Assembly: GCA_024407725.1 (NCBI GenBank)
Contig: JAKSVZ010000006.1
Location: 12,860-44,859, forward strand
Length of the DNA stretch: 32,000 nt
Reading direction: 5' to 3'
DNA from: Opitutales bacterium
GTDB taxonomy: Bacteria; Verrucomicrobiota; Verrucomicrobiia; Opitutales; UBA9783
A model generated the notes under the pieces. The model ran no database searches, was not told the origin of the DNA, and saw nothing but the letters and a program-made list of their open reading frames with translations. Below are positions 5,003 to 32,000 of this stretch, one piece after another; within the stretch, counting starts at the first letter, position 1, and the number at the start of each line of letters is the position of its first letter. Position numbers and translations under genes: made by a program.

Positions 5003-5114
5003 AGCCTTTTAATCGTTTACCCTCTAACCTGAAAAGGAAAAATTCGATGGTATTTTAACATATCCTCCCTATCGACACCAAGCGAAATTGCATCAAGTAG
5101 CGACCGATGCGCTG

Positions 5115-7208
5115 TTACCAAGAACTCAAATTCAAGCCAAACAACAGCTGCCACTTATACAATTTATCCCACTTACATTCCGTGCTAAACCACCAAAGAT
5201 GCGAAATAATCGTTTTCCACATAAACGATTGCGATACAAAACCCAATTTCTTGAAGGTAAGAACCGTATTAGCCAACAATTGGTTTCGGGAATTAAGGTA
5301 ATAGGTTCCGCCAAAGGAACATTGGTGCTCAATACCCCCTGTATTCCTCAAGTAAATATGACCGATGCGAAATTCCCACAAATCGCTTTCCTTGAACGTT
5401 ACCCCCGTATTAGCCCATTTTAAGCGCTTATTGCCTAAATCGAAGTACAAACTTTGATCAAAGGATAAAAAGTCGGCAGGCCGCCATTCAACCTTCGTGC
5501 AGGTACCCCCCAAATGATGCTGTTGCTGCCCATTGACCCAATTGCGCTTCATCAGTACATCTTGGTAAATATGCGCCGATAACCATTCGCGTTCATTGCC
5601 ATCCCAGCCAAAGGCATATAAGAAATTCTCCAATCCGAAACGCATTAAATGCATATCGTTCATATCATCGATATCCCGCCGGTTCAACAGATCGATTTCG
5701 CTCAACGAACACGTATTTTCGCCCCCATCTACCTCACGATCGATAGCAGGAACAAACGCATGCCCTTGATGCCCATGCGGCATATAGCGGTATTGAATGA
5801 CCGGCTGAATTAAATGACGGAAGTCGTAAATATTCCAATACTTGTTTTTGTAGGCGTAATCCCCATAAGCATGAAAACGCACATCCGCTCCTAATTGCCC
5901 TAAATAACGCGTGTAGGTACTCTTATTATCCGGATTGTTTAAGCCAGCATAAGAAATCATACGCCCACTCGCCAATGGAGTAATCGTGCATGCCTTAGAA
6001 ACAGACATCGGCAGCGATAAACCATAATACAGATCGCCGCGTTTAAGGGTACGACGGGTCTTATCGCCCGACCGGCGTTCGCGAACATGCGATACCCCGC
6101 CGCCAAATTGATGATGAAGCGGACTATCCCCAATCGGCACCGGTAAGTACTCAAAACGGGCTTCCGGCAAACGTTCTTGAACGGTATGAAAGCGGTTCAA
6201 TTGGTGCCGCGTAACCACATTAGCCACAAATTCATCGCCGCGATAAACCGCTTCGGCAAAATTATCCGCCTGTTGGCGCATTCCATCATTCTCATTGGGA
6301 CGCACATCGCGAATTACCTCTTTATCGCGCATCCACTCAACCTGAGCGCTTATATCCACTCGGTCTTCAACGTGCCCTTGATGCCGCCATTCAAACCAAT
6401 GACGTTTACTTTTGACATTCGGTTGATTCCGATAGCTTTTGTCATTCAATCCAGCCGCTCGAACCCCACCGTTTCCATAAGGCGTATCATAACGAAGCAA
6501 ACCACCCACTAATGGTCCGCGTTTGTGATAATAATCGAGCATGATTCCCGGACGAATCCGCCCATAATTCAACACCAAATCATTGCGTATATGCCGGTTG
6601 CTGCTCAACACCTCTGCTTCGGTACTCCACGTATAATCCTTCTGTTCGCTAGACCGATCCTTAAGATGATAGGTAGGTAAATACCACACCGGAATCTTAC
6701 CAATTTTGACCGTTGCTTTTTTCAAAATCGCATCGTGCGGATGCACTTCTACTTCTTTGGCATGAATGTGAACCCCTGCCAAATCCCGTTGCGCTCCACG
6801 AACATCGATTTCAACATCTTTTGCATACGCGCAATCCCGAGTTCCATGCATCGAAGACCCACGCACTCCATGGCCAAATGCAGCCATGCGAAACGAATCC
6901 ACCGCAAAGGTTTTATCATTCACATAATAGAACCCCGAATTACTGGCAATACGCCCTAAGGCATGCGTCAGGCGCACCCTTCCGTCTGCCAATCCCTTAG
7001 CGTTTTCCGTTACATAACAAATGCGATCAGCTTGTAAACGTGCATCATCGCTTAACAATTCTGCATTACCTTCGGCAATCGACGTACGGGTTTTATGGTC
7101 ATACACAACCGGTTGATCGGACGATAAAGCCAGAGCTGACAAAATACCAACCGGAGCCATTATCCCTCCGATTAACAATAACAACTTAGGCTGTTGCAAT
7201 GGAACCAT
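5115..7208 (-). CDS. lptD: LPS-assembly outer-membrane protein LptD (OstA/Imp)-like
   Basis: 697-aa ORF with an N-terminal signal/anchor (LLLLIGGIMAPVGILSALA). An OstA-like N-terminal pattern follows (AEGNAELLSDDARLQADRICY...ADGRVRLT). The rest is a long Tyr/Gly/Asn/Arg-rich beta-barrel-like region with an aromatic C-terminus (LNLSSW). Assignment is by motif recognition only. Confidence 0.6.
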   Translation of the reverse strand: MVPLQQPKLLLLIGGIMAPVGILSALALSSDQPVVYDHKTRTSIAEGNAELLSDDARLQADRICYVTENAKGLADGRVRLTHALGRIASNSGFYYVNDKTFAVDSFRMAAFGHGVRGSSMHGTRDCAYAKDVEIDVRGAQRDLAGVHIHAKEVEVHPHDAILKKATVKIGKIPVWYLPTYHLKDRSSEQKDYTWSTEAEVLSSNRHIRNDLVLNYGRIRPGIMLDYYHKRGPLVGGLLRYDTPYGNGGVRAAGLNDKSYRNQPNVKSKRHWFEWRHQGHVEDRVDISAQVEWMRDKEVIRDVRPNENDGMRQQADNFAEAVYRGDEFVANVVTRHQLNRFHTVQERLPEARFEYLPVPIGDSPLHHQFGGGVSHVRERRSGDKTRRTLKRGDLYYGLSLPMSVSKACTITPLASGRMISYAGLNNPDNKSTYTRYLGQLGADVRFHAYGDYAYKNKYWNIYDFRHLIQPVIQYRYMPHGHQGHAFVPAIDREVDGGENTCSLSEIDLLNRRDIDDMNDMHLMRFGLENFLYAFGWDGNEREWLSAHIYQDVLMKRNWVNGQQQHHLGGTCTKVEWRPADFLSFDQSLYFDLGNKRLKWANTGVTFKESDLWEFRIGHIYLRNTGGIEHQCSFGGTYYLNSRNQLLANTVLTFKKLGFVSQSFMWKTIISHLWWFSTECKWDKLYKWQLLFGLNLSSW

Positions 7209-20515: not shown

Positions 20516-21300
20516 TGGCTTCCATTCGACTCATTACTTGGAATGTTAATGGGTTGCGCGCCATTTTAAGAAAAAACTTTTACGATTTTGTCAAAGCCTA
20601 TCGTCCAGATGTTCTATGCCTGCAAGAAACTCGGGTAGATGCTCAACAATGTCCTCACTTAGATGGCTTTGAGCATCAATTCTTCAACCACAGCGAAAGC
20701 AAAAAAGGATACTCAGGTACCGCCATTCTTTCTACCATCGCCCCTATTAACGTCCGCTGTTTGGATGCGGATTTGGAACATCCGGAAGGGCGTATCTTGG
20801 TAGCAGAATTTCCTCAGTTTTTCTTGGTAAACACCTACGTTCCCAATTCCCAGAACTTCCTGCAACGGCTTTCCTACCGCGTGCAGGTATGGGACAAAGC
20901 TTTGCGGACGTTAGCCTGTCAGTTGGATAAACAAAAACCGGTTGTACTTTGCGGAGACTTTAACGTCGCTCATGAACCGATTGATTTAGCCAATCCTAAC
21001 CAAAATCATTTTAATGCCGGCTTTACCGATGAAGAACGGCAATCGTTCTCTGAACATCTGGCAGCAGGGTTTGCAGACGTTTTTCGCCAGCAACACCCCA
21101 ATGTTCCTAAGCAATACACATGGTGGTCTTATCGGATGCGGGCACGCGAACGCAACATCGGTTGGCGTATTGATTACTTTTTAGCTTCTCAACGCCTCCT
21201 GCCAGCCATTACCGACTGCACCCTGTTAACCGAAGTCATGGGCTCTGATCATGCACCGGTAAGCTTGACCTTGGATCTATCCAAAATTCAACAAGGCTAA
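20515..21300 (+). CDS. xth: Exodeoxyribonuclease III (AP endonuclease, EEP family)
   Basis: 261-aa ORF with LITWNVNGLRA, DVLCLQETRV, CGDFNVAHEPIDL, WWSYRMRARERNIGWRIDY and SDHAPV. Confidence 0.9.
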   Translation: MASIRLITWNVNGLRAILRKNFYDFVKAYRPDVLCLQETRVDAQQCPHLDGFEHQFFNHSESKKGYSGTAILSTIAPINVRCLDADLEHPEGRILVAEFPQFFLVNTYVPNSQNFLQRLSYRVQVWDKALRTLACQLDKQKPVVLCGDFNVAHEPIDLANPNQNHFNAGFTDEERQSFSEHLAAGFADVFRQQHPNVPKQYTWWSYRMRARERNIGWRIDYFLASQRLLPAITDCTLLTEVMGSDHAPVSLTLDLSKIQQG

Positions 21301-21415
21301 CGTCTCCAGCGCTTCTAACATCCGTTGTATCGATGGATACGCTCCTCATCCTGCGAGTCTGAAGGATAAAAATCTTGCAGCTACACCCTGCTTTTTAGTA
21401 TCTTATAAAGACGTC

Positions 21416-21491
<76 letters not shown>

Positions 21492-21502
21492 ATTCATTTC
21501 AT

Positions 21503-22303
21503 ATGGGAATATGCCGCATAGTGTATTTTGGGGATATCATGGGAGCTACCGGACGCCGTTACCTACAAGCCCAATTGCCTTCCATTAAGCAACAGTATCA
21601 ACCCGATTTTATCTTTGCAAACGCCGAAAACGCGACCAATGGCTTTGGACTCACAAAGGCCATTGCAGAAGAACTGTACGCCTTTGGTATTCAAGGGTTT
21701 TCTCTAGGTAATCATACGTGGGATCAAAAATCCTTTTGGGGCGAAATCGACAGCATTCCTTATGTTTGCAGACCCGCTAATCTCCCCCCAGCATGCCCTG
21801 GGCGTACCCACTTAGTGTTTAACTGGAACGGTGAATCGATCGCAATCATCAACCTCCTAGGTCGCGCCTGCATCAATATGTCGCTGGATTGCCCCTTCCG
21901 TACCGCCCAACACTTGGTCGAATCCTTAAAATCCCAAGGGATTCATAACATTCTTATCGATTTTCACGCCGAAACCACTTCTGAAAAATGCGCCATGGGT
22001 TGGTTTGGCTCCACCTTAGGAGTGTGCGCGGTAATGGGTACCCATACCCATATTCAAACAGCCGACGAACGTATCTTGAACAACCAAACAGCTTTTATCT
22101 GCGATTTGGGCATGTGCGGCGCTGCCAATAGTATTCTTGGGGCAAAAAAAGACCCCATTATCGATAAATTTATCAACGGAAAACCTTGCCGCTACGAAGC
22201 AGCGGATGGTCCTGCTAAAATCAATGGAGCCTTGATTTGTATCGATTGTACCACCCATAAGGCTTTATCCATCGAACGTATCGCCTTAATGGAACCATGC
22301 TAA
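21503..22303 (+). CDS. ymdB: YmdB-like metallophosphoesterase (TIGR00282 family, 2',3'-cyclic-nucleotide phosphodiesterase-like)
   Basis: Sequence features: RIVYFGDIMGATGRRYL, DFIFANAENATNGFGLT, LGNHTWD, IDFHAETTSEK and GTHTHIQTADERIL. I moved the start to ATG 21503, because the track start at 21458 lies inside the tRNA gene. Confidence 0.8.
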   Translation: MGICRIVYFGDIMGATGRRYLQAQLPSIKQQYQPDFIFANAENATNGFGLTKAIAEELYAFGIQGFSLGNHTWDQKSFWGEIDSIPYVCRPANLPPACPGRTHLVFNWNGESIAIINLLGRACINMSLDCPFRTAQHLVESLKSQGIHNILIDFHAETTSEKCAMGWFGSTLGVCAVMGTHTHIQTADERILNNQTAFICDLGMCGAANSILGAKKDPIIDKFINGKPCRYEAADGPAKINGALICIDCTTHKALSIERIALMEPC

Positions 22304-22340
22304 CCTCATCCTTTTAGCGCCAGAAGCGGCGTATCTTCTA

Positions 22341-22356
22341 CCCCCCCCCAAAAAAA
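22341..22356. repeat. Homopolymer pair C9 (22341-22349) and A7 (22350-22356) in the upstream region of OMP paralog 1
   Basis: Read directly. It sits immediately 5' of AAGCTTGCAA, the same box as the promoter-like sites at 8941, 9291 and 9708, and about 90 nt upstream of the ATG at 22442. Confidence 0.9.
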
Positions 22357-22385
22357 GCTTGCAATTTCAGGAAAACGCCCAAAAT

Positions 22386-22445
22386 CTTATAAGGAAACGC
22401 CTTATAAGGAAACGCCTTATAAGGAAACGCCTTATAAGGAAATGA
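22386..22445 (+). repeat. 15-bp tandem repeat x4, unit CTTATAAGGAAA(C/T)G(C/A), ending on the start codon of OMP paralog 1
   Basis: Three perfect units of CTTATAAGGAAACGC at 22386-22430, then CTTATAAGGAAATGA at 22431-22445, whose ATG (22442) is the gene start. Each unit carries the 8-bp palindrome CTTATAAG and a GGA/SD-like AAGGAA. Confidence 0.95.
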
Positions 22446-23404
22446 CTAAAAGAGTAAGCCTATTATTAGCTCTAAGCATTGCTTTAGGAATCCACACCCC
22501 CTGTTATGGTTTGTACGTCATGGTACGGTCGGGGTTCGGAGAGTTAAAAGCCGACAAACAAATCGGTACTTTTCGTCAAACCAATGGTACATTGCCAACG
22601 TGGCATGAAGCAGCTGTAGGTGCTAATGATAACAATTTGCACTTTGACGATTTTCCATCTTCGTCTTTAGTTCGCAGTAGCAACTGTACTAGTGGTAAAT
22701 TGGAATATAAGAATCATCATAACCTATCGGTTGCTTTGGGTGGACGCTTCGATGTTTTTGATATCGGCGCCTTAGGAATTGAACTCGAAATCCTAGGCGG
22801 TTATGCCAATTTCAAAAATAAAACGCGGGATTTCGTTGACTGTAGAAAAGAGTTCAATCAGCCTCAGAACCTAGATTGGAATGACTTGCTCGTAATGAGG
22901 CGTCCAGATTTCCTCATGATTAAGTATCAAAAAATCGGTGTCATGAATCTCGCACAAATCAGACCGATGTACCTATCAAATCAACGGATTGCAGGAGTAC
23001 AGGCCAATTTCTATTGGGAACAGTATATCTTGGATTGGTTATCCGCTGGAATCGGCGGCGGTATCGGGGGCGCTTATATTGCCACCAAGATGAAAACCTA
23101 TGAAACTTGGAGAAGGTTATGGATTTATCGAGATAGACGCGTGCCCCCTGGCAATCACTACTGTTGGGATGCTGTATTCGGTCTTGATTGGAAACAGCGC
23201 ACAAAGTATGCTCATAACCTAGCTCTGTTGTACAATCTTACCCTGTTTGTACGCGCTGAAAAGTTCGAGACACTCTTTGAAGTCGGATTTAGACATATCG
23301 GATTGCATGAGGTGAATGATAACAAAATCTATGGGCATTCAATCAAAAACCTCGCTAACCTTCATTCCGACCAAATCTATTTGGGCGTAGGAAGAACGTT
23401 CTAA
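22442..23404 (+). CDS. Putative beta-barrel outer-membrane protein, paralog 1 of a variable OMP family
   Basis: 320-aa ORF with a signal peptide (MTKRVSLLLALSIALGIHTPCYG). Alternating amphipathic segments are present, along with Gly-rich strands (GIGGGIGGAY) and the canonical OMP C-terminus ...IYLGVGRTF with a terminal Phe. It is a paralog of 31043..31996. No named family could be assigned from memory. Confidence 0.6.
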   Translation: MTKRVSLLLALSIALGIHTPCYGLYVMVRSGFGELKADKQIGTFRQTNGTLPTWHEAAVGANDNNLHFDDFPSSSLVRSSNCTSGKLEYKNHHNLSVALGGRFDVFDIGALGIELEILGGYANFKNKTRDFVDCRKEFNQPQNLDWNDLLVMRRPDFLMIKYQKIGVMNLAQIRPMYLSNQRIAGVQANFYWEQYILDWLSAGIGGGIGGAYIATKMKTYETWRRLWIYRDRRVPPGNHYCWDAVFGLDWKQRTKYAHNLALLYNLTLFVRAEKFETLFEVGFRHIGLHEVNDNKIYGHSIKNLANLHSDQIYLGVGRTF

Positions 23405-23413
23405 GGACGTTTT

Positions 23414-24562
23414 TTATTGTAATTGCGAGAGGATATAATCCGCTCCAGCGCGTGCTGATTGATTTGGATGATACACATGGCGCTGGCGTAAGGATTGGAG
23501 GGTTTGTTTCCAATCATCCGCGTGGTTGATTAAATCCTGCAAAACCGGTACTAGCTGAGGAATAGCATTGAGGGTAATGGGGATGCCAATGGAGCGTCGT
23601 AGTTGCAACTCAATCGGTTCCAATTCCAAAGCGCGCCAGTTGGGATTAAATTCCTTAGGAGGCGTTTCGATAAAGATTACTGGGCGTTCAGTGCCAAAAG
23701 CGTATTCGAATGCAATTCCTGAGCGGTCGGTAATACACACTGCGGCTTCGTACACATTATCTTCCGTCAACAGGTGATCTTCCCAAATAAAATGAGGCAG
23801 AGCTTGTACCTTCTGTTTAATTTGTTGCGCGCGATCAGGACAGCGTTTTAAAAACTCCGGATGTGGGCGAACAACAACGCGATAATCCGTGTTTTTCAAA
23901 GCATCGATGAGGGCATCAATTCCCTGTTCCATTAAATTCCCTGGACCCCAAGTAGGAGCAACCAACACGGTTGTTTGATTGGGAAATTTCGGGGTGTAAT
24001 GTTGAAACTTTTGGTACACAACATCGATACGCGGATAACCCACCGGTAGCAATTGTTTTGCGGGCAAGGCATACACCTGTTCCCGCTTCTTGATTTCTTC
24101 AGTATGATGAGGGCCTACGCAAAAAATGGCATCATAAGCATCAAAAGCGGTTTCGTTGTATTGCAAATGAGTACTGGAAAAAGCGTGAAATAGATAGACG
24201 TAGGATTTTACTTTCTTGGATTTCCGAAACGCGCGTACCTGCGTACTGTTTAAATCGGGTGCAGTCCAAACAAAACACGTTGCATCGATGCGATCCATAA
24301 CCGATTTCAAACAAAGGTCAAAATAGAAGGGATGTAAGCGCTCGTGGTGATGCGTTAAAATCGGATCCTTTGGGTCATTGGTAAGGTAACTGAACTGGAT
24401 GGATGGATTTTTGAGCAGCTCGGTAATAAATGGCTCAAACGTTTGATAATAGATAGCGCTTTCGGAAAAAAACACCAATTGGCGGCAAGGTGCGAAGTCT
24501 TTGCTAAAAAAACGATTGTATGCCTTAAATTCTCCCCATAGACTTAGGATGTGTTGGAACAT
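23414..24562 (-). CDS. TagB/TagF-like CDP-alcohol (glycerophospho)transferase family protein
   Basis: Roughly 382 aa. The pattern resembles the Glyphos_transf family: YVYLFHAFSSTHLQY...YDAIFCVGPHHTEEI, TVLVAPTWGPG (compare ILYAPTWR), VVVRPHPE, and CITDRSGIAFEYAFGTERPVIF (compare ITDYSSxxFDFxxLxKPIIF). I prefer the ATG at 24562; the track start is TTG 24571. Motif recognition only. Confidence 0.5.
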   Translation of the reverse strand: MFQHILSLWGEFKAYNRFFSKDFAPCRQLVFFSESAIYYQTFEPFITELLKNPSIQFSYLTNDPKDPILTHHHERLHPFYFDLCLKSVMDRIDATCFVWTAPDLNSTQVRAFRKSKKVKSYVYLFHAFSSTHLQYNETAFDAYDAIFCVGPHHTEEIKKREQVYALPAKQLLPVGYPRIDVVYQKFQHYTPKFPNQTTVLVAPTWGPGNLMEQGIDALIDALKNTDYRVVVRPHPEFLKRCPDRAQQIKQKVQALPHFIWEDHLLTEDNVYEAAVCITDRSGIAFEYAFGTERPVIFIETPPKEFNPNWRALELEPIELQLRRSIGIPITLNAIPQLVPVLQDLINHADDWKQTLQSLRQRHVYHPNQSARAGADYILSQLQ

Positions 24563-27538
24563 AATTATCAATGTATTATCTTGGGAGCAGGGCGGTCAAA
24601 ACAATTAACCCAAAACCCCGCGCTGGTTAATATTGATCAGGATCAATGTACGTTGGATTGGTTGCTTAAAACCGTAGGGGCTAATGCTTCCAGCAGTATT
24701 TTTGTCGGCGGTTATACCTTTGATGCGATTGCACAACATTATCCGCAGTTGCGTTTCGTTTGTAATGCTCAATGGGCGAAAACTGGCTGTGAAACCTCGC
24801 TGTATCTATCTCAATTTGACCCAAAATTGCCTGCATTTATATGCTATGGGGATATCTTGGTGCGCACTGCATTGGTTGAATCGGTTCTGAAAGCAGCCGA
24901 AGCGGGTGATAACGATGGGGTTATTGCCTTAGATTCCCATACACAGCTATTGGACACCAAAGAAAACTATGAATGCTTCGAAGGAAGCTTAAAAGGGCAA
25001 CGCGGGCAGTATCCCTTTGTTGGATGTGTGTATTTAAAGCCAAAAGCATTGGAATTTTTGCAGAAAAACCAATGTTTTAGCAACAATGGTAAGGCTTACC
25101 GTTTGTCCGACTTGCTGCGTTTTTGCCAAAATAGCTTGCGATTGGCTTGCGTGGATGCGCATGGATTGTGGGCTGAAATCTTACGCCCCATCGATATTAC
25201 CAAGTTTATCCTCACCACAAAATCCGAAACACTCCAAACCTTGCAGCGTCATATTACCCAAGCACGGATGTTGGATCAGGTCCATTTTTCGGTTAAGGAG
25301 TGGCGTGAGCAACCTTCTAGCCTCGTTTCATCTATCCTGCAAAAATTCCAACGGCAACCGTTGGTGGTGCGCAGTAGCTCATTACAGGAAGATAACTTTA
25401 CGCAGGCCAATGCGGGTAAATTCGAAAGTATTTTAAACGTTCAACCGGAAGATGCCGCTATTAAAGCAGCCGTTGATACCGTTATTCAATCCTATGGAAC
25501 GCCGAAGGATGCGGATCAGGTGTTGGTTCAACCCATGCTGCCGAACGTTAAATTGAGCGGGGTTGTTTTTACCCGTAGCCTGCAGCATAGTGCCCCTTAC
25601 TACATTGTGAATTATGATGTGGCAAGCACCGAATCCGTGACCAGTGGTCAAAGTACGCAGGATGTTATCTTTTATCATTGGAAACATGCACCCATTCCGC
25701 CTCATGCGCCTGATTTTTATCCGCGCTTGCAGGCAGCAATTCAAGAAATTGAGCGCCTAACCCAATGGGATGCGTTGGATATTGAGTTCGCGGTTACTCA
25801 GCAAAACGAACTGTATTTGTTCCAAGTACGGCCTTTGGTTGCGCGCCACCTGCAGGAAATTAGCGACGAACAGCTTCAGCAGTGCTTGGATGAGGCTGCA
25901 GATCGCTTCGATTCATTACAAATCCCTCAGGAAGCTATTGCGGGGCAACATACGATTTTCGGGGTTATGCCGGATTGGAACCCAGCTGAAATGATTGGAA
26001 CGAAACCAAATGCGTTAGCGGCTTCCCTCTATCGTACGCTGATCACAGACTCCATTTGGGCGCAACAAAGGGCGGAATTTGGCTATAAAGACGTACGTCC
26101 TTATCCCTTGATGGTAAGCTTTGCGGGTCACCCGTATATTGATGTGCGCGCCAGTATCCATTCGTTTATCCCCAAGTCCGTTCCTACCGAAACAACCGGC
26201 AAGTTGGTCACATTTTTCGTTAACCGTTTAAAACAGCATCCTGAATGGCATGATAAGTTGGAATTTAAGGTGATGCCGACGTGCGACACCTGCGATTTTG
26301 ATGAACGTTGGCACGCGTTGTTAACCCAAGAAGCAGGGTTGTCGGTAGCCGAATATCAACAGTATCGCTCGGCTTTGCACAAAATAACCCATGCTGCTTT
26401 GATTCAATGTGAATCCTACTATCAAGCCATTAAGGCGATAGAAGAGCGTTTTGCACGTATTAAAGCGTCCAAGCAAGCGGATAGCGATAAAATTTACACC
26501 TTGGTTGAAACAGCCAAAGTGGGTACGCTCAACTTTTCCCATTTAGCCCGATGCGGCTTTATTGCGCGTTCTTTGCTGCAGGCCTATGAAGCGCAAGGGA
26601 TTATCACCAAGGAAGAAAGTCAGTCGCTTGTTGACGCTATTCAAACGATTGCGGGACAATTTTTTAAGGATACACAGGCTGCGATTGCGGGTAAAGGTTC
26701 TAAGCAAGCCTGTTTGGATACCTATGGGCATTTGCGCCCCGGAACCTACGATATTACATCGCCAACCTACCGTTCTGATCCTGAAAAATACTTGTTTGTA
26801 AAGAGCACAGTGGAATTGAGTCAGCGTTCCAAAGCAACCTTTAGTTATACCCAGTTGGAATCCGCTTTACAAAAGGACTGGGGAATTTCACTTACCGCAT
26901 TTCGGCAATTTTTACAGTGTGCAATTGCCGGCCGCGAATATTCAAAGTTCATCTTTACGCGCTACAGCTCGCATATTTTGGATTTAATTCAAGCAATCGG
27001 TGCTCGCTATGGGTTTTCAGCGAAAGAATTAGAGCATGTACCTATTACGGTTTTTATGCAACTGCGCGGGGGGATTGATGCGTCAAAAACCTTGAAAGCT
27101 TTACTGCAGGCAACCATCGAACAAGGCGCGTTGGATTACTGTTTCGCTCAGGCCATAGAATTGCCTCCGTTGATTACCAACAAGAGCGATTTTTATGCCT
27201 TTTTTGTGCCTAAATCCCTGCCGAATTTCATTGGAAATCAAAAGGCCGAAGCACCCCTGATTTACCTCAAGAATTCTGATCAGGCGGATGGTGCAGCTTT
27301 GCGCGATAAGATTGTTTTGATTGAAAAAGCGGATCCTGGGTTCGACTGGATTCTCAATTATGCGATTGCTGGGTTGATTACCGCTTATGGAGGTCCCAAT
27401 TCCCATATGGCCATCCGTTCGGCAGAATGTCACTTGCCGGCAGCAATTGGAATTGGAGAAGCGTTGTTTGACTCGCTCAAAACAGCTCAGTTGGTTCACT
27501 TAGATTGCGCCAATCACACGTTAAAACGCATCCGATAA
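24551..27538 (+). CDS. Fusion protein: N-terminal nucleotidyltransferase domain plus a PEP-utilizing-enzyme-type kinase (ATP-grasp PPDK_N-like domain and C-terminal phosphohistidine swivel domain); Cj1418 / rifampin-phosphotransferase-like architecture
   Basis: 995-aa ORF.
- Residues ~1-220: CIILGAGRSKQL (a GxGxR NTP loop) and ICYGDIL, paralogous to the ITYGDII of the downstream 28184 gene.
- Residues ~225-460: TTKSETLQTLQ, PLVVRSSSLQEDNFTQANAGKFESILNV (compare PpsA/PPDK VAVRSSATAEDLPxASFAGQ) and LDIEFAV...LYLFQVRP.
- C-terminus: VLIEKADPGFDWILNYAIAGLITAYGGPNSHMAIRSAECHLPAAIG, the PEP-utilizers mobile domain with the catalytic His.
- No PEP/pyruvate-binding TIM-barrel domain is present.
- Start is GTG 24551 or TTG 24554. 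Confidence 0.7.
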   Translation: MLEHNYQCIILGAGRSKQLTQNPALVNIDQDQCTLDWLLKTVGANASSSIFVGGYTFDAIAQHYPQLRFVCNAQWAKTGCETSLYLSQFDPKLPAFICYGDILVRTALVESVLKAAEAGDNDGVIALDSHTQLLDTKENYECFEGSLKGQRGQYPFVGCVYLKPKALEFLQKNQCFSNNGKAYRLSDLLRFCQNSLRLACVDAHGLWAEILRPIDITKFILTTKSETLQTLQRHITQARMLDQVHFSVKEWREQPSSLVSSILQKFQRQPLVVRSSSLQEDNFTQANAGKFESILNVQPEDAAIKAAVDTVIQSYGTPKDADQVLVQPMLPNVKLSGVVFTRSLQHSAPYYIVNYDVASTESVTSGQSTQDVIFYHWKHAPIPPHAPDFYPRLQAAIQEIERLTQWDALDIEFAVTQQNELYLFQVRPLVARHLQEISDEQLQQCLDEAADRFDSLQIPQEAIAGQHTIFGVMPDWNPAEMIGTKPNALAASLYRTLITDSIWAQQRAEFGYKDVRPYPLMVSFAGHPYIDVRASIHSFIPKSVPTETTGKLVTFFVNRLKQHPEWHDKLEFKVMPTCDTCDFDERWHALLTQEAGLSVAEYQQYRSALHKITHAALIQCESYYQAIKAIEERFARIKASKQADSDKIYTLVETAKVGTLNFSHLARCGFIARSLLQAYEAQGIITKEESQSLVDAIQTIAGQFFKDTQAAIAGKGSKQACLDTYGHLRPGTYDITSPTYRSDPEKYLFVKSTVELSQRSKATFSYTQLESALQKDWGISLTAFRQFLQCAIAGREYSKFIFTRYSSHILDLIQAIGARYGFSAKELEHVPITVFMQLRGGIDASKTLKALLQATIEQGALDYCFAQAIELPPLITNKSDFYAFFVPKSLPNFIGNQKAEAPLIYLKNSDQADGAALRDKIVLIEKADPGFDWILNYAIAGLITAYGGPNSHMAIRSAECHLPAAIGIGEALFDSLKTAQLVHLDCANHTLKRIR

Positions 27539-27543
27539 CGATT

Positions 27544-28197
27544 ATGAATCAAGCAGCAAACGCCTCATCACACGACCTAAAATGGTTGAAAATCGGGCTA
27601 TCTCAGCGCACCATTCAGGCAGCGGAAGCTCAGGGAGTGGTTAGTCCATCCGATGAGCTGCATGATGAATTGAGTCAGCAATGGACTACCTTGTTAAACG
27701 CACGCCATTTATTGACCCTGCCTATTCCCAACCAAGTTCCGTTGCAACCGTGGCTATCGGCGGTGAATTTAGACGGAATTTTGTTGAGTGGAGGCAATGA
27801 CCACGCTACGCGTAGTACCTGCGAAACCGCTTGTATCGAATACAGTATGCAGCATCGCTTACCCCTCATGGGCATTTGCCATGGTTTCCAATGCATCGCA
27901 CGTTATTTCGGAGCCCAATTGATTCCCATTCAAGGGCATGTTGGATGTACGCATCCGGTTCAAATTCATGACAATCCGTATATCCCAGCCGGTACCCAAA
28001 TCGTTAATTCCTTCCATACGCTAACGATAGCAACGCTTCCGGATGGGTTTAAGCCGCTTGCAACCGATCTTGATGGCCATTTGGAGGCAATTTATCACGC
28101 AACGCTACCGATAGTCGCTTTTATATGGCATCCGGAACGTCCTCCGTTTGATGCCAAGTGGAACGCTTGGGCTTATTCTTTTTATGCAAAACACTAA
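27544..28197 (+). CDS. Class-I glutamine amidotransferase-like / peptidase C26 gamma-glutamyl hydrolase family protein (Cj1417-like)
   Basis: LKIGLSQRT at the N-terminus, DGILLSGGND, the nucleophile elbow LMGICHGFQ and WHPER (a Cys-His triad context). The ATG at 27544 is 5 nt after the upstream stop; the track start at 27505 overlaps the upstream gene. Confidence 0.75.
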   Translation: MNQAANASSHDLKWLKIGLSQRTIQAAEAQGVVSPSDELHDELSQQWTTLLNARHLLTLPIPNQVPLQPWLSAVNLDGILLSGGNDHATRSTCETACIEYSMQHRLPLMGICHGFQCIARYFGAQLIPIQGHVGCTHPVQIHDNPYIPAGTQIVNSFHTLTIATLPDGFKPLATDLDGHLEAIYHATLPIVAFIWHPERPPFDAKWNAWAYSFYAKH

Positions 28198-28915
28198 GGT
28201 TTTTATTTTGTGTGCTGGCGAAGGTAAACGCTTACGTCCGTATACTGAGCATCAACCCAAATGCATGGTTCCTTACCAAGGGAAGCCGCTTGTGGAGTAT
28301 CAATTGGATTTGTTTGCTCAACAGGGGTTTCGGGATATTGTTCTCATCGGTGGCTATCAATATACGCTATTGCCAAAACAAGCCACGGTGGTGGTTAATC
28401 CCGATTATGCGAAAACCAATATGGTTTATAGCCTGTTTTGCGCTCAGGAACAGATGGATGAATCTTGCGATTGGCTCATTACCTACGGGGATATCATTTA
28501 TCATGCGTCGGTATTGCAAGCGATGCTTAACGCCAAGGAATCCATTGCGGTTGCAACCGATGTTGATTGGCAGCGTTATTGGGAACGGCGTATGGAAGAT
28601 CCGTTGAAGGATGCGGAAACTTTTCGCTGGGATACGCAGACCCACCGCATTGCTGAAATCGGTAAAAAACCAAAAACCTTGGCGGATATCCAAGGCCAGT
28701 ACATTGGGTTTATTAAGGTAGCTGCGCAACATACCAAAACCTTTAAGCAAGCCTATCAGCAGTTTTTAAGCGTTCACTCCAAAACCGCTTACATGACGGA
28801 TTTTTTGCAGTTTTTAATCGACCAAAACATTCCGCTGTATGGCGTACCCATTCATAATCATTGGGCTGAATTTGATACGGTTCAGGATCTATCGCTAACA
28901 TTGGATTGGCTATGA
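28184..28915 (+). CDS. LicC-like nucleotidyltransferase (putative cytidylyltransferase for a phospho-alcohol or phospho-amide; Cj1416-like)
   Basis: KVFILCAGEGKRLRPYTEHQPKCMVPYQGKPLVEYQLDLFAQQGFRDIVLIGGY closely parallels the LicC N-terminus ([53 protein letters not shown], from memory), followed by YGDII. The ATG at 28184 gives a 14-nt overlap with the upstream gene. Confidence 0.75.
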   Translation: MQNTKVFILCAGEGKRLRPYTEHQPKCMVPYQGKPLVEYQLDLFAQQGFRDIVLIGGYQYTLLPKQATVVVNPDYAKTNMVYSLFCAQEQMDESCDWLITYGDIIYHASVLQAMLNAKESIAVATDVDWQRYWERRMEDPLKDAETFRWDTQTHRIAEIGKKPKTLADIQGQYIGFIKVAAQHTKTFKQAYQQFLSVHSKTAYMTDFLQFLIDQNIPLYGVPIHNHWAEFDTVQDLSLTLDWL

Positions 28916-28922
28916 TCCACGT

Positions 28923-28951
28923 TTGATTCCGCGCTGTAATTTCCTTATAAT
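28923..28951 (+). promoter_or_regulatory. Candidate sigma70-type promoter for glgB (TTGATT-N17-TATAAT)
   Basis: Read directly: TTGATT at 28923-28928 and a consensus TATAAT at 28946-28951, which is 19 nt upstream of ATG 28971. An AGAGG SD-like element lies between them. The -10 overlaps a 12-nt copy of the OMP repeat motif. Confidence 0.35.
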
Positions 28952-28970
28952 AAGCTTAATAGAGGCGTAC

Positions 28971-31046
28971 ATGAGGAACATTACTAAGAAAGCAACAACC
29001 GTCCATGGTAAAACAGCGAAGAAAACTTTAAAGCCGTCCGCTAAAAAACCCTGCATCCGTAGTAAATCCACCAAGCAGGTAAGTGCTGCCAAATTAACTT
29101 CTGTTATCGATTGCCATACTGCTTGGAAATTAGCCAATCAGGCTGATTTGCTCGCCTTCCAACAAGGGCACTGCAATCGCATTTATAACGTACTTGGTTC
29201 TCATCCCGCCACTGAAGAAGGGAAAGCAGGCTATCACTTTGCGGTATGGGCGCCGAATGCAAAATCTGTGTCTGTTGTAGGGGATTTTAATCAATGGGAT
29301 GCGAAGAAAAATCCCATGTACCTACACAATCTTTTTGGGGTATGGGAAGTATTTGTTCCTGATGTTCAAGTAGGACAAAAATACAAATATGCCGTTGTCG
29401 GATATAACCAACAATTGCAGTTGAAAGCCGATCCGTACGGTAATTGGGGCGAACATACCGATTCACACGCGTCCATCCTATGCCCCGCCTTAAACCGATA
29501 CGTGTGGAACGACAATGCGTGGATGCAAAAGCGCGCTAAACATAATTGCCAAGAACAGCCTTTGTCGATCTATGAGCTGCACATTGATTCTTGGCGCCAC
29601 AATGCAAAAGGCAATCCGCTCACTTATCGAGAATTGGCTCAGCAACTCGTTCTGTATTTAAAAGCAACAGAATTTACGCATGTTGAATTGATGCCGATCA
29701 TGGAGCACCCCTTTACCGATTCTTGGGGCTATCAAATCACTGGGTTTTATGCACCCACCTCGCGTTATGGGACACCAGAAGACTTTCAGTATTTAATCGA
29801 TACGCTGCATCAAGCCAATATTGGCGTCATTCTTGATTGGGTACCGGGTCACTTCCCAACCGACGATTTTGGTTTAGCGCGCTTCGATGGTACCGCTTTG
29901 TATGAACATGCCGATCCGCGCCAAGGCATCCATCCTGATTGGGGAACCTACATCTTTAATTATGGACGCAACGAGGTACGTAATTTCCTCATCAGCAACG
30001 CTCTGTTTTGGATTGAGCAATTCCATATCGATGGCCTACGTTTGGATGCGGTTGCTTCCATGCTTTACTTGGATTATTCTCGAAAACCTAATGCGTGGAT
30101 TCCCAACCAATACGGCGGTAAGGAGAATATCGAAGCGATTAATTTCTTACGCGAATTCAACAACATTATCCATTCGTCCTATCCAGGTATTTTATCAATC
30201 GCTGAAGAATCAACTTCCTTTGGGCGCGTTTCCCAACCAACTCAATCGTACGGCTTGGGCTTCGATTTCAAATGGAATATGGGTTGGATGCACGATGTCT
30301 CCAATTACTGCAAATTAGACCCGATTTTCCGCAAATATCATCACAACAAAATGACCTTTGCTATGCTCTATCAGCGCTCAGAGCATTTCATCAACGTCTT
30401 TTCACACGATGAAGTGGTGTACGGTAAGGCTTCGATGGTACAGAAAATGGGTTCGCCGTATTTAAGCGATAAACTGAGTACCTTGCGCGCTCTTTATACC
30501 TTTATGTGGGGATGGCCGGGCAAAAAAACGCTCTTTATGGGCAATGAATTCGCTCAGCTCGATGAATGGGATTTCCACAAAGCTTTGTCTTGGGAGTTAT
30601 TGGAAAAACCAGAACATCAAGGAATGTTGCGCTTAATCTTCGATTTAAATCACCTCTACCGCACGCTGCGTTTTTGGCACGAAGGAGATATGTACGAAGG
30701 TAGTTTTTCTTGGATCAACCCAGAAGATTGCGATAACAGTGTATTTTCATTTATACGCAAAAGCGCTTCCTCAACCCATACGCTCTTGTTTATCTCGAAC
30801 TTTACTCCCATTGAGCACGCGAATTACGAATGCGGGGTTCCTTTTGCCGGTACTTGGAATGAACTGCTTAACTCCGATAGTACATCCTACGGCGGACTTA
30901 ATCGTGGAAATTTAGGCTCTGTAACTGCTGTCAAGCAGGAACGCGACCTACAACCCTGCACAATTAGTTTATATCTACCTCCGCTGAGCACTATTATCTT
31001 AGAGTTTAAACGTACTCATACAAAAGCATGCGATAAAAGCGCTTAG
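28971..31046 (+). CDS. glgB: 1,4-alpha-glucan branching enzyme GlgB (GH13)
   Basis: Sequence features: YHFAVWAPNAKSVSVVGDFNQWD, THVELMPIMEHPFTDSWGYQITGFYAP, DWVPGHFP, GLRLDAVASMLY, AEESTSF, FSHDEVV. I prefer the ATG at 28971; the track start is TTG 28923. There is a ~55-aa Lys/Thr/Ser-rich N-terminal extension, unless an internal TTG is the true start. Confidence 0.9.
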   Translation: MRNITKKATTVHGKTAKKTLKPSAKKPCIRSKSTKQVSAAKLTSVIDCHTAWKLANQADLLAFQQGHCNRIYNVLGSHPATEEGKAGYHFAVWAPNAKSVSVVGDFNQWDAKKNPMYLHNLFGVWEVFVPDVQVGQKYKYAVVGYNQQLQLKADPYGNWGEHTDSHASILCPALNRYVWNDNAWMQKRAKHNCQEQPLSIYELHIDSWRHNAKGNPLTYRELAQQLVLYLKATEFTHVELMPIMEHPFTDSWGYQITGFYAPTSRYGTPEDFQYLIDTLHQANIGVILDWVPGHFPTDDFGLARFDGTALYEHADPRQGIHPDWGTYIFNYGRNEVRNFLISNALFWIEQFHIDGLRLDAVASMLYLDYSRKPNAWIPNQYGGKENIEAINFLREFNNIIHSSYPGILSIAEESTSFGRVSQPTQSYGLGFDFKWNMGWMHDVSNYCKLDPIFRKYHHNKMTFAMLYQRSEHFINVFSHDEVVYGKASMVQKMGSPYLSDKLSTLRALYTFMWGWPGKKTLFMGNEFAQLDEWDFHKALSWELLEKPEHQGMLRLIFDLNHLYRTLRFWHEGDMYEGSFSWINPEDCDNSVFSFIRKSASSTHTLLFISNFTPIEHANYECGVPFAGTWNELLNSDSTSYGGLNRGNLGSVTAVKQERDLQPCTISLYLPPLSTIILEFKRTHTKACDKSA

Positions 31047-31996
31047 AACGTTCTTCCTACGCCCAAATAGATTTGATCGGAATGCATATTCGCCAACTTC
31101 GGAATTTCATACCCGTAGCATTTAGCACCAAACATCTGATGCAAGCCGATATGGCGATAGCCGACCTCAAATAACGTTTCAAATTTTTCTGCGCGTACAA
31201 ACAGCGTAAAGTTATAGAGTAACGAGCCGGTATGGACGTACTTACGACGTTGGATGAATTCCCCTGCATGTCCCCAATAATACTGTCCTTGTGGTATTCC
31301 ATCTTCCCACTCCAAATATTGATAGTATTCCCGAGTGGTAAATTTGGTACAGACATAAGCGCCGCCAATCCCCCCCCCGATACCAACGGATAGGTAATCA
31401 AGTAGATAGTGTTCCCAATAGATATTGAACTGAGCACCTGCAATCCGTTGGTTCTTAAGCCACATGAAAGTCATGTTACGGCTAATTTCTTCTGCTGCGA
31501 TATTCAAGGTACGGTCTCGCATTAAGATAAGATCAGGAGTCTCAACGATGTATGTATCTATCGTTGATAGCTTAGTTGTACGCTTTGAGGGGGTATAAGC
31601 ACCTAGGATTTCTACTTCCAATCCCAATGCGCCAATATCAAATACATCAATTCGTCCGCCCAACGCCACCGATAGGTTTTTATGATCCTTGTATTTGAAT
31701 TGACCAGAAGTACAGTCGGTATTTCGACTCAAAATGCTAGCACCATCAGTACCCAGATGTAGTACGGGAGGATTAAACACGTCTCCGTCTTCAAACCACG
31801 TCATTTCTCCGTTTTTTTTCTCGAACTTTCCGACATCATCGGCTTTTAACTCTCCAAACCCCGATCGTACCATGACGTACAGACCATAACAAGGGGTGTG
31901 GATTCCTAAAGCAATGCTTAGGGCTAATAATAAACTTATTCTTTTAGTCATTTCCTTATAAGTCATTTCCTTATAAGTCATTTCCTTATAAGTCAT
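31043..31996 (-). CDS. Putative beta-barrel outer-membrane protein, paralog 2, with an N-terminal (MTYKE)n repeat encoded by a 15-bp tandem repeat
   Basis: 317-aa ORF reaching the window edge. After (MTYKE)x3, the sequence MTKRISLLLALSIALGIHTPCYGLYVMVRSGFGELKAD is 37/38 identical to paralog 1, and the C-terminus is the same (...HSDQIYLGVGRTF). The signal-peptide-proximal ATG is at 31951. Further in-frame ATGs lie at 31966, 31981 and 31996, and the repeat may continue beyond 32000. Confidence 0.6.
   Translation of the reverse strand: MTYKEMTYKEMTYKEMTKRISLLLALSIALGIHTPCYGLYVMVRSGFGELKADDVGKFEKKNGEMTWFEDGDVFNPPVLHLGTDGASILSRNTDCTSGQFKYKDHKNLSVALGGRIDVFDIGALGLEVEILGAYTPSKRTTKLSTIDTYIVETPDLILMRDRTLNIAAEEISRNMTFMWLKNQRIAGAQFNIYWEHYLLDYLSVGIGGGIGGAYVCTKFTTREYYQYLEWEDGIPQGQYYWGHAGEFIQRRKYVHTGSLLYNFTLFVRAEKFETLFEVGYRHIGLHQMFGAKCYGYEIPKLANMHSDQIYLGVGRTF
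31370..31378. repeat. G9 homopolymer (C9 on the plus strand) inside the coding sequence of OMP paralog 2
   Basis: Read directly. The gene-sense sequence ATC GGG GGG GGG ATT encodes the IGGGI of GIGGGIGGAY. Paralog 1 encodes the same peptide with an interrupted sequence (ATC GGC GGC GGT ATC). Confidence 0.9.
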
Positions 31997-32000
31997 TTCC
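31948..32000 (-). repeat. 15-bp tandem repeat (at least 3.5 units visible, truncated by the window end), gene-sense unit CTTATAAGGAAATGA
   Basis: Plus-strand units TCATTTCCTTATAAG at 31948-31962, 31963-31977 and 31978-31992, plus a partial unit at 31993-32000. Every unit contains an in-frame ATG. Confidence 0.95.

Follow-up and report, generated by a model that had tools for sequence, protein, structure and literature searches.

A start-codon-bearing 15-bp tandem repeat at the 5' end of a predicted outer-membrane beta-barrel gene of an Opitutales bacterium: a probable variant of a copy-number-variable leader repeat

What does a tandem repeat do when its units carry in-frame start codons for the gene that follows? 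This question is raised by a 32,000-nt stretch of DNA from an Opitutales bacterium (contig JAKSVZ010000006.1, positions 12,860 to 44,859 of the forward strand; hereafter the window), at one end of which a 15-bp repeat runs into the 5' end of a gene termed here paralog 2. The original prediction, made from the letters of the window, held that the repeat encodes a variable-length (MTYKE)n prefix ahead of a signal peptide. We found that the repeat is real and is the start-codon-carrying version of a copy-number-variable 15-base repeat located upstream of most genes of the same family. The array probably tunes the amount of protein rather than adding a functional peptide. The array, its gene and the putative signal peptide are positioned as follows.

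31946 to 32000, minus strand: 15-bp tandem array with start codons (3.7 perfect copies of the gene-sense unit CTTATAAGGAAATGA), truncated where contig and window end
31043 to 31951, minus strand: coding sequence (CDS) of paralog 2 from the proximal, family-conserved ATG, 302 aa, MJ218_02040, annotated as partial
31883 to 31951, minus strand: putative signal peptide MTKRISLLLALSIALGIHTPCYG, modelled as an N-terminal helix and then a low-confidence stretch, with a presumed cleavage site

Tandem Repeats Finder reported an array at positions 31946-32000 with a period of 15, 3.7 copies (55 nt), 100% matches and a score of 110, in agreement with the earlier statement that the repeat extends to the window edge. 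Read on the minus strand the array is GGAAATGACTTATAAGGAAATGACTTATAAGGAAATGACTTATAAGGAAATGACTAAAAGAATAAG, which is parsed in gene sense as GGAAATGA-(CTTATAAGGAAATGA)x3-CTAAAAGAATAAG. The four ATGs that had been predicted were all found, at 31996, 31981, 31966 and 31951, in a single frame with no stop, and the encoded N-terminus is (E)MTYKE-MTYKE-MTYKE-MTKRISLLLAL. The context of every one of these ATGs is identical over at least -11 to +6. Base 32000 is the end of the 44,859-bp contig as well as of the window, and the array is thus truncated by the assembly. The CDS record of this gene in NCBI (P0001, 'MAG: hypothetical protein MJ218_02040, partial [Opitutales bacterium]', 318 aa, from a metagenome-assembled genome or MAG) likewise begins within the repeat, with the N-terminus EMTYKE. 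The ATG-bearing form of the array is so far a single case, that of paralog 2, and is cut by the contig end.

A second member of the family within the window, paralog 1, is complete at its 5' end and is preceded by an array of the same period.

22341 to 22385, plus strand: promoter-like module upstream of paralog 1, conserved in related loci
22386 to 22445, plus strand: paralog 1 array, three CTTATAAGGAAACGC units without ATG and then a terminal CTTATAAGGAAATGA that holds the start codon
22442 to 23404, plus strand: CDS of paralog 1, 320 aa, MJ218_02010

The start codon of paralog 1 is the ATG at 22442, inside the terminal CTTATAAGGAAATGA; the span given for this array by Tandem Repeats Finder was 22386-22442. 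The units of the two arrays were found to differ at exactly two bases, ACGC versus ATGA, just as had been noticed at the outset. Of the two base changes that mark the ACGC-type units, one removes the ATG and the other extends a palindrome from 8 to 10 bp, the longer form (CCTTATAAGG) being present in the paralog 1 array.

Array length was tabulated by script for 13 independent related loci with complete upstream DNA, with the following numbers of units in total (the terminal one counted).

L004: 1 unit
L018: 1 unit
L019: 1 unit
L024, first gene: 1 unit
L020: 2 units
L021: 3 units
L022 = L023: 3 units
L024, second gene: 3 units
Window, paralog 1: 4 units
L003: 4 units
L017: 5 units
L015 = L016: 6 units

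By this approach, the ATG was found to be absent from every whole upstream unit (21 of 21) in the eight independent complete arrays other than that of paralog 2. The spacers of these upstream units are solely CGC, CAC or AGC, all of which retain the final C that completes the palindrome CCTTATAAGG, and a truncated array (L002) also has the CGC spacer and no ATG. Among the arrays compared, a TGA spacer is confined to that of paralog 2. In 10 of the 13 independent complete loci, the stretch from the upstream stop to the canonical ATG has no in-frame ATG, GTG or TTG, and about 45 homologues begin directly with MTKR or MKKL. No other protein with an MTYKE prefix was found in the databases searched; a query with the MTYKE-prefixed protein returned two ordinary N-terminal fragments alone, a weak negative given that the query was short and few candidates were retrieved. 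A further member from the same MAG, P0005 (MJ218_03920; L014 1-75), has a divergent 15-bp array of ACTTCTTACATAGGT x4 followed by ACTTCTTATATGAGA, also cut by a contig end; its upstream copies read ATA where the terminal copy has ATG, and the array has no strong palindrome. In the homologues, the repeat was not found to encode a conserved peptide reachable from a start codon. Since upstream units lack the ATG, upstream starts are few and the homologues start with MTKR or MKKL, the array is best described as a leader repeat and not as coding sequence. Sequence comparison thus indicates that the array is, in the family, basically a non-coding leader repeat, and that the (MTYKE)n reading is peculiar to the apparently recent array of paralog 2. 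That such a prefix is the primary nature of the element was not supported, in view of the 21 ATG-less units, the 10 of 13 loci devoid of an upstream start and the lack of any MTYKE homologue.

With regard to the start codon of P0005, it was also observed that the canonical ATG is mutated to ACA and that a new ATG lies 6 nt upstream (MRTTKK…).

Differences in copy number were apparent at equivalent positions in different genomes. Downstream of tsf, one unit was present in the species UBA3869 (L004) versus six in two ENA samples (L015, L016); downstream of ymdB, the window has four units, L020 two, L024 one and L018/L019 one. L020 was recognised as a counterpart of the window by its glgB gene, which is 95% identical to that of the window (28923 to 31046, plus strand, convergent with paralog 2 with a 4-base overlap). 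L003 and L017 were dropped as positional counterparts, L017 having an intact tRNA-Ser and L003 just a remnant. The same strain recovered from independent samples had identical arrays (L015 = L016, L022 = L023), which argues that the counts are not assembly noise. A lack of length polymorphism had been named as an outcome that would speak against the prediction; at the level of the family, the reverse was found (one versus six units, and four versus two versus one, between genomes). The unit is 15 bp in all arrays, and the expectation that a change in copy number preserves the frame was borne out. Being a multiple of three, a unit of this length would fit the predicted graded rheostat rather than an on/off switch.

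The proteins encoded downstream of these arrays form a large family. Paralogs 1 and 2 are 55% identical, with the first 38 residues and the C-termini almost the same and the middles different. At least 15 paralogs with MJ218_ tags were found in the one Opitutales MAG, together with about 45 homologues from ENA, JGI and Logan metagenomes; some of the homologue records have names with PRJEB21624 or 'STEW18', which we take to be a cow-rumen data set. No Pfam match was obtained for the paralog protein at E<=0.01. An AlphaFold model built with the family alignment (mean predicted local distance difference test, pLDDT, of 89.9) has a helix at residues 2-14 and long antiparallel strands that form a barrel from residue 24. 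Foldseek returned weak matches to this model, with a TM-score normalised to the query (TMq) of <=0.39, among them Legionella porin III, OmpA, Ail, NspA and OpcA. The C-terminus of paralog 2 reads ...GVGRTF, and its last residue is Phe; a C-terminal aromatic residue is typical of outer-membrane barrels. The signal peptide is probably MTKR...CYG. With its predicted N-terminal signal peptide, all-beta barrel and C-terminal aromatic residue, the family protein is predicted by modelling to be an outer-membrane beta-barrel of an undescribed family, an assignment that by Pfam and Foldseek extends to the fold class alone and not to a named barrel family. A tandem repeat abutting the start codon of a predicted outer-membrane beta-barrel gene, one of the traits of a contingency locus, is present here.

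A glycine-rich family motif of these proteins, GIGGGIGGAY (31370-31378 in paralog 2; 23050-23070 of the window), is encoded in part in paralog 2 by nine consecutive C (read as G in gene sense), a further homopolymer that could slip, this one within the coding sequence.

Upstream of the arrays, all close relatives share a module that contains a tRNA-Ser 3' remnant, a polyC tract (5-9), a polyA tract (6-9) and GCTTGCAA. In front of paralog 1 its layout is C9 (22341-22349), A7 (22350-22356), GC, TTGCAA (22359-22364), 15 nt, and CAAAAT (22380-22385). The first unit follows TTGCAA at a distance of 21 nt in all but three of the 13 independent complete loci, those three having 20, 20 and 18 nt, and the module-to-first-unit distance is constant across copy numbers; expansion of the units thus lengthens the stretch between module and ATG. 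The sequence that follows TTGCAA usually ends in CA(A/G/C)AAT, 15 nt past TTGCAA. Two other promoter arrangements were considered and rejected. For an internal sigma-70 promoter in the array, no TTGACA-like hexamer was present 16-18 nt upstream of TATAAG and a scan found none; for a promoter of the extracytoplasmic function (ECF) type (GGAAAC ... CGC), the spacing is merely 14 nt.

Two further observations concern this module. The lengths of the polyC (5-9) and polyA (6-9) tracts directly 5' of GCTTGCAA vary among loci (window 22341-22356, with C9 and A7, compared with L003, L004, L015, L017, L018, L019, L020, L021 and L024), and the tracts are a potential second slippage site adjoining the -35-like element. 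The remnant of a tRNA-Ser(GGA) 3' end (CTCTCCGCCATAGAAGCGGCAT) lies at 22304-22339 in the window, at about 2340-2385 in L003 and at about 9908-9945 in L018. An intact tRNA-Ser is found at L017 411-500 and the remnant alone in other loci, even beside ymdB, which by sequence comparison makes the promoter module seem to have spread from a copy adjoining the tRNA.

Folding as single strands was calculated to yield -14.6 kcal/mol for the paralog 1 array and -4.5 kcal/mol for that of paralog 2, both far beyond shuffled controls (z about -7 to -8). In the RNA model the units form nested hairpins, each pair of units contributing about -15 kcal/mol for the ACGC type and about -10 kcal/mol for the ATGA type.

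Taken together, these data are brought under one reading that we consider somewhat favoured by the sequence evidence: the paralog 2 array would be the start-retaining form of a variable leader repeat in an outer-membrane barrel family, acting as a contingency-locus 'volume control'. The unit is a copy of the gene's own initiation cassette, made up of the ATG together with 11 preceding bases and a single following base. Where just one unit is present (L004), CTTATAAGGAAATGA is flanked by CT on either side (aatCTtataaggaaatgaCTaaaag), and by virtue of these flanks a further unit with its own ATG would arise from a single event of slippage or microhomology. Slipped-strand or microhomology-mediated duplication would thus make the array and then expand or contract it, the arrays growing downstream of the fixed promoter-like module, with each unit adding 15 nt to the presumed 5' leader. 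In the common form, the upstream units would have lost the ATG and gained the 10-bp palindrome, such that neighbouring units may pair as stable hairpins. The paralog 2 units repeat the terminal unit exactly; the mRNA of this gene would offer four or more equivalent sites of initiation, all in frame, and its hairpins would be weak. The identity of these units to each other and to the terminal unit fits a recent expansion, and the array has the look of a terminal unit that was duplicated not long ago, start codon included.

Transcription of the array, use of its upstream ATGs and an effect on expression are inferred from the sequence. In a transcribed array, the upstream ATGs would be expected to perform about as well as the authentic start, given their identical context. 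The products would all be in frame and would differ just by a longer, net-neutral n-region of a cleaved signal peptide. The expected outcome would be graded, heritable yet unstable variation in the expression of individual paralogs through leader length and structure; paralog 2 would additionally be tuned by its number of initiation sites, where the common form would add hairpins instead.

Several observations weigh against a volume control of this kind. The modelled accessibility of the start is nearly flat with copy number, at 0.29-0.32 for ACGC-type arrays and about 0.38 for ATGA-type arrays of at least two units, and the folding model therefore does not by itself predict a rheostat. On the same values, which hold at all copy numbers for the ACGC type, a hairpin switch that hides or exposes the start in odd and even copies was rejected. 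The best candidate for a -10 element, CAnAAT at a 15-nt spacer, is absent in L018, and a simple sigma-70 scan called no canonical promoter in the regions scanned, the conserved module included. The promoter of paralog 2, whose upstream region lies beyond the contig end, is assumed by analogy. AAGGA lies 1 nt from the ATG and is doubtful as a normal Shine-Dalgarno sequence; the other genes of the window show little such signal. The differences in copy number are, moreover, differences observed between genomes.

Other explanations of the array were weighed on the same evidence. We regard as unlikely the alternative that initiation at upstream ATGs gives a variable (MTYKE)n prefix whose length tunes Sec targeting or export. 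The four in-frame ATGs without a stop, each sharing the local context of the authentic start, would be accounted for in this way, and the +2 charge of MTKR would be kept, as the single K and the single E of each MTYKE cancel out. An open frame is nevertheless weak evidence for coding, since stops are in any case absent from two of the unit's three reading frames, and the prefix is missing from all homologues, as are the ATG from the 21 whole upstream units of the eight other arrays (ATA in P0005) and an in-frame upstream start from most arrays. A prefix inside the cleaved signal peptide would also be lost with it and thus be absent from the mature protein. Somewhat easier to entertain, if still doubtful, is a neutral by-product, in which hairpin- or microhomology-prone sequence next to the start slips in replication and copy number drifts with no effect on expression. 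The perfect identity of the paralog 2 units suggests a recent origin, palindromic units do fold as single strands, and the folding model yields almost no change in start accessibility with copy number, all of which such drift would explain. It explains less readily why many paralogs and species have an array in the same place, why the three spacer variants all keep the palindrome-extending final C and all lack an ATG, a pattern that looks constrained, and why module-to-first-unit spacing is conserved; such repeats also affect the expression of other surface-protein genes (PMC12721329, PMC4081817).

The palindrome itself suggests a regulatory site: CCTTATAAGG, recurring every 15 bp and overlapping the start region, might bind a dimeric DNA- or RNA-binding regulator, with the number of copies setting how strong repression is and the paralog 2 units, which have the 8-bp palindrome only, serving as weaker sites. 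The perfect palindrome is kept across the CGC, CAC and AGC spacer variants, the arrays lie near the likely transcription start, and all seven occurrences of the core CTTATAAG in the window, against 0.44 expected by chance, fall within the two arrays. We nonetheless consider an operator improbable, as no candidate regulator was identified, the P0005 array has the same 15-bp period and no comparable palindrome, and hairpin formation explains the palindrome equally well. A mis-joined or chimeric contig end that would make the ATG-type array an artefact of assembly is very improbable indeed. The array does lie at the very end of its contig, and family genes are often so placed (P0005, L002, L005 and L006 among them); the periodic sequence before the contig stops is perfect and exactly 55 nt, a length often used as the largest k-mer. 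With k=55, however, a de Bruijn assembler would stop in this manner if the array were unresolvably long or heterogeneous, which would imply a long or heterogeneous array and not a false one. Furthermore, the junction with the unique coding sequence of paralog 2 is seamless, and the TGA spacer is seen in no other array and thus was not borrowed from a paralog.

The proposed volume control may be compared with known repeat-controlled genes, the closest analogue, by likeness of arrangement, being the hmw repeat of Haemophilus. In H. influenzae, the hmw (ATCTTTC)n repeat is transcribed in the 5' untranslated region (5'-UTR), forms a hairpin and is subject to RNase III processing, with the level of HMW1A inverse to repeat length (PMC12721329); the variable copy number of the hmw1A/hmw2A repeat sets graded expression (PMC12721329, PMC8262952). 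Common to both systems is a tandem repeat between the promoter, presumed in the Opitutales, and the start codon of a paralogous surface-protein gene. The hmw unit is 7 bp, excludes both the ribosome-binding site and the ATG, and forms its hairpin by pairing of the repeats with a distinct G-rich arm; the Opitutales unit is a 15-bp, self-complementary copy of the initiation cassette, with the start codon included in paralog 2. A poly-T tract next to the -35 element of Helicobacter pylori sabA provides stepwise adhesin expression and is described as a rheostat (PMC4081817). The Opitutales polyC/polyA tracts 5' of GCTTGCAA vary at a similar position; the sabA tract is a homopolymer upstream of the promoter, compared to the 15-bp repeat downstream of the promoter-like module here.

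Other systems share single aspects of the arrangement. The opa genes of Neisseria carry 5-bp CTCTT repeats in the region coding for the signal peptide and are switched on and off by frameshift. Like the Opitutales family, they are a multigene set of small outer-membrane barrels with conserved ends and variable loops, each with its own 5' signal-peptide-associated repeat tract. Their repeat lies within the coding sequence and shifts the frame, whereas the Opitutales unit is mostly non-coding and never shifts the frame, since 15 bp is a multiple of three; a frameshift switch of the opa type was rejected on this ground, the unit being of the same length in all arrays. In H. influenzae lic1A, CAAT repeats together with alternative ATGs give more than two expression levels, and a 5' repeat tract is likewise combined with several possible starts. 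Repeat number moves the lic1A ATGs in and out of frame, unlike the Opitutales ATGs, which are always in frame and inside the units. The AGAT repeats in the 5'-UTR of Moraxella catarrhalis uspA2 and the GAA repeats of Mycoplasma gallisepticum vlhA set the level or choice of expression by their number upstream of surface-protein genes, vlhA being also a large gene family; they differ from the present case in unit size, position and organism group, and they have no start codons. No description of the family or of the 15-bp repeat was found in the literature searched. To our knowledge, repeat-driven control of surface genes is well documented in a handful of pathogens, with next to no description from Verrucomicrobiota or from commensals of the gut or rumen. 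What is unusual here is that the unit is the gene's own initiation cassette and exists in an ATG-less hairpin form and an ATG-bearing form. The two forms provide a natural pair for the effects of leader repeats and tandem starts on translation and export.

It is also conceivable, though in our estimate unlikely as a whole, that the array belongs to a larger system of surface variation with several layers, in an uncultured Opitutales lineage that may live in association with a host or with protists. In such a system, each of at least 15 barrel paralogs would have a portable module (tRNA-Ser remnant, polyC/polyA and TTGCAA) and a variable 15-bp hairpin repeat, and recombination between the conserved 5' modules would swap gene bodies among expression contexts, as might be the case for the inversion of L020 described below. 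Arrays that retain the ATG, such as that of paralog 2, would amplify translation through their tandem starts, in opposition to the hairpin arrays that lack it. The family bears on how uncultured host-associated bacteria vary their surface, and a large unannotated outer-membrane family at rearrangement breakpoints bears on the quality of MAG assemblies, in which contigs break there.

Rearrangement was evident around the family genes. In L020 (JGI Ga0139362_1018724, 5032-6120, compared with window 22442-31951), the order is ymdB, family gene, convergent glgB; the upstream flank resembles that of paralog 1 (93% identity) and the 3' end and downstream flank that of paralog 2 (86-95%). L020 thus corresponds to the window after inversion of the segment of about 9.5 kb that separates the 5' ends of the two oppositely oriented paralogs, which points to recombination at the 5' modules of the paralogs, whereby gene bodies would be exchanged among promoters and arrays. 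More generally, family genes were found at synteny breakpoints (L015/L016, L018/L019, L022/L023, L024 and window 21458-24571), in six combinations of neighbours: ymdB and the glgB block, ymdB and the inverted glgB block, ymdB and an fmt block, a rarA-like gene and an fmt block, tsf and an ECF-sigma block, and ymdB and an ECF-sigma block.

Broader scans were also performed. A scan of a genome collection with the family alignment found one species, UBA3869, and a scan of JGI metagenomes for two adjacent units returned five unrelated sequences. One JGI contig (Ga0224511_10167774; L008, about 1650-1790) has about eight imperfect units of the CGCTTATAAGGAA type with an iteron-like look, unconnected to the family. 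Within 21300-32000, only the tRNA-Met at 21416 was matched by Rfam at E<=1. This tRNA-Met (CAT; 21416-21491) overlaps the 5' end of the listed ymdB open reading frame (21458-22303, with a TTG start at 21458), and ymdB probably starts instead at the ATG 15 codons downstream. On a related rumen contig (L021, 8319-9851), a family member is immediately preceded by a gene for a PF03219 (TLC) ATP/ADP translocase, a finding that hints at an energy-parasitic or intracellular lifestyle of the lineage.

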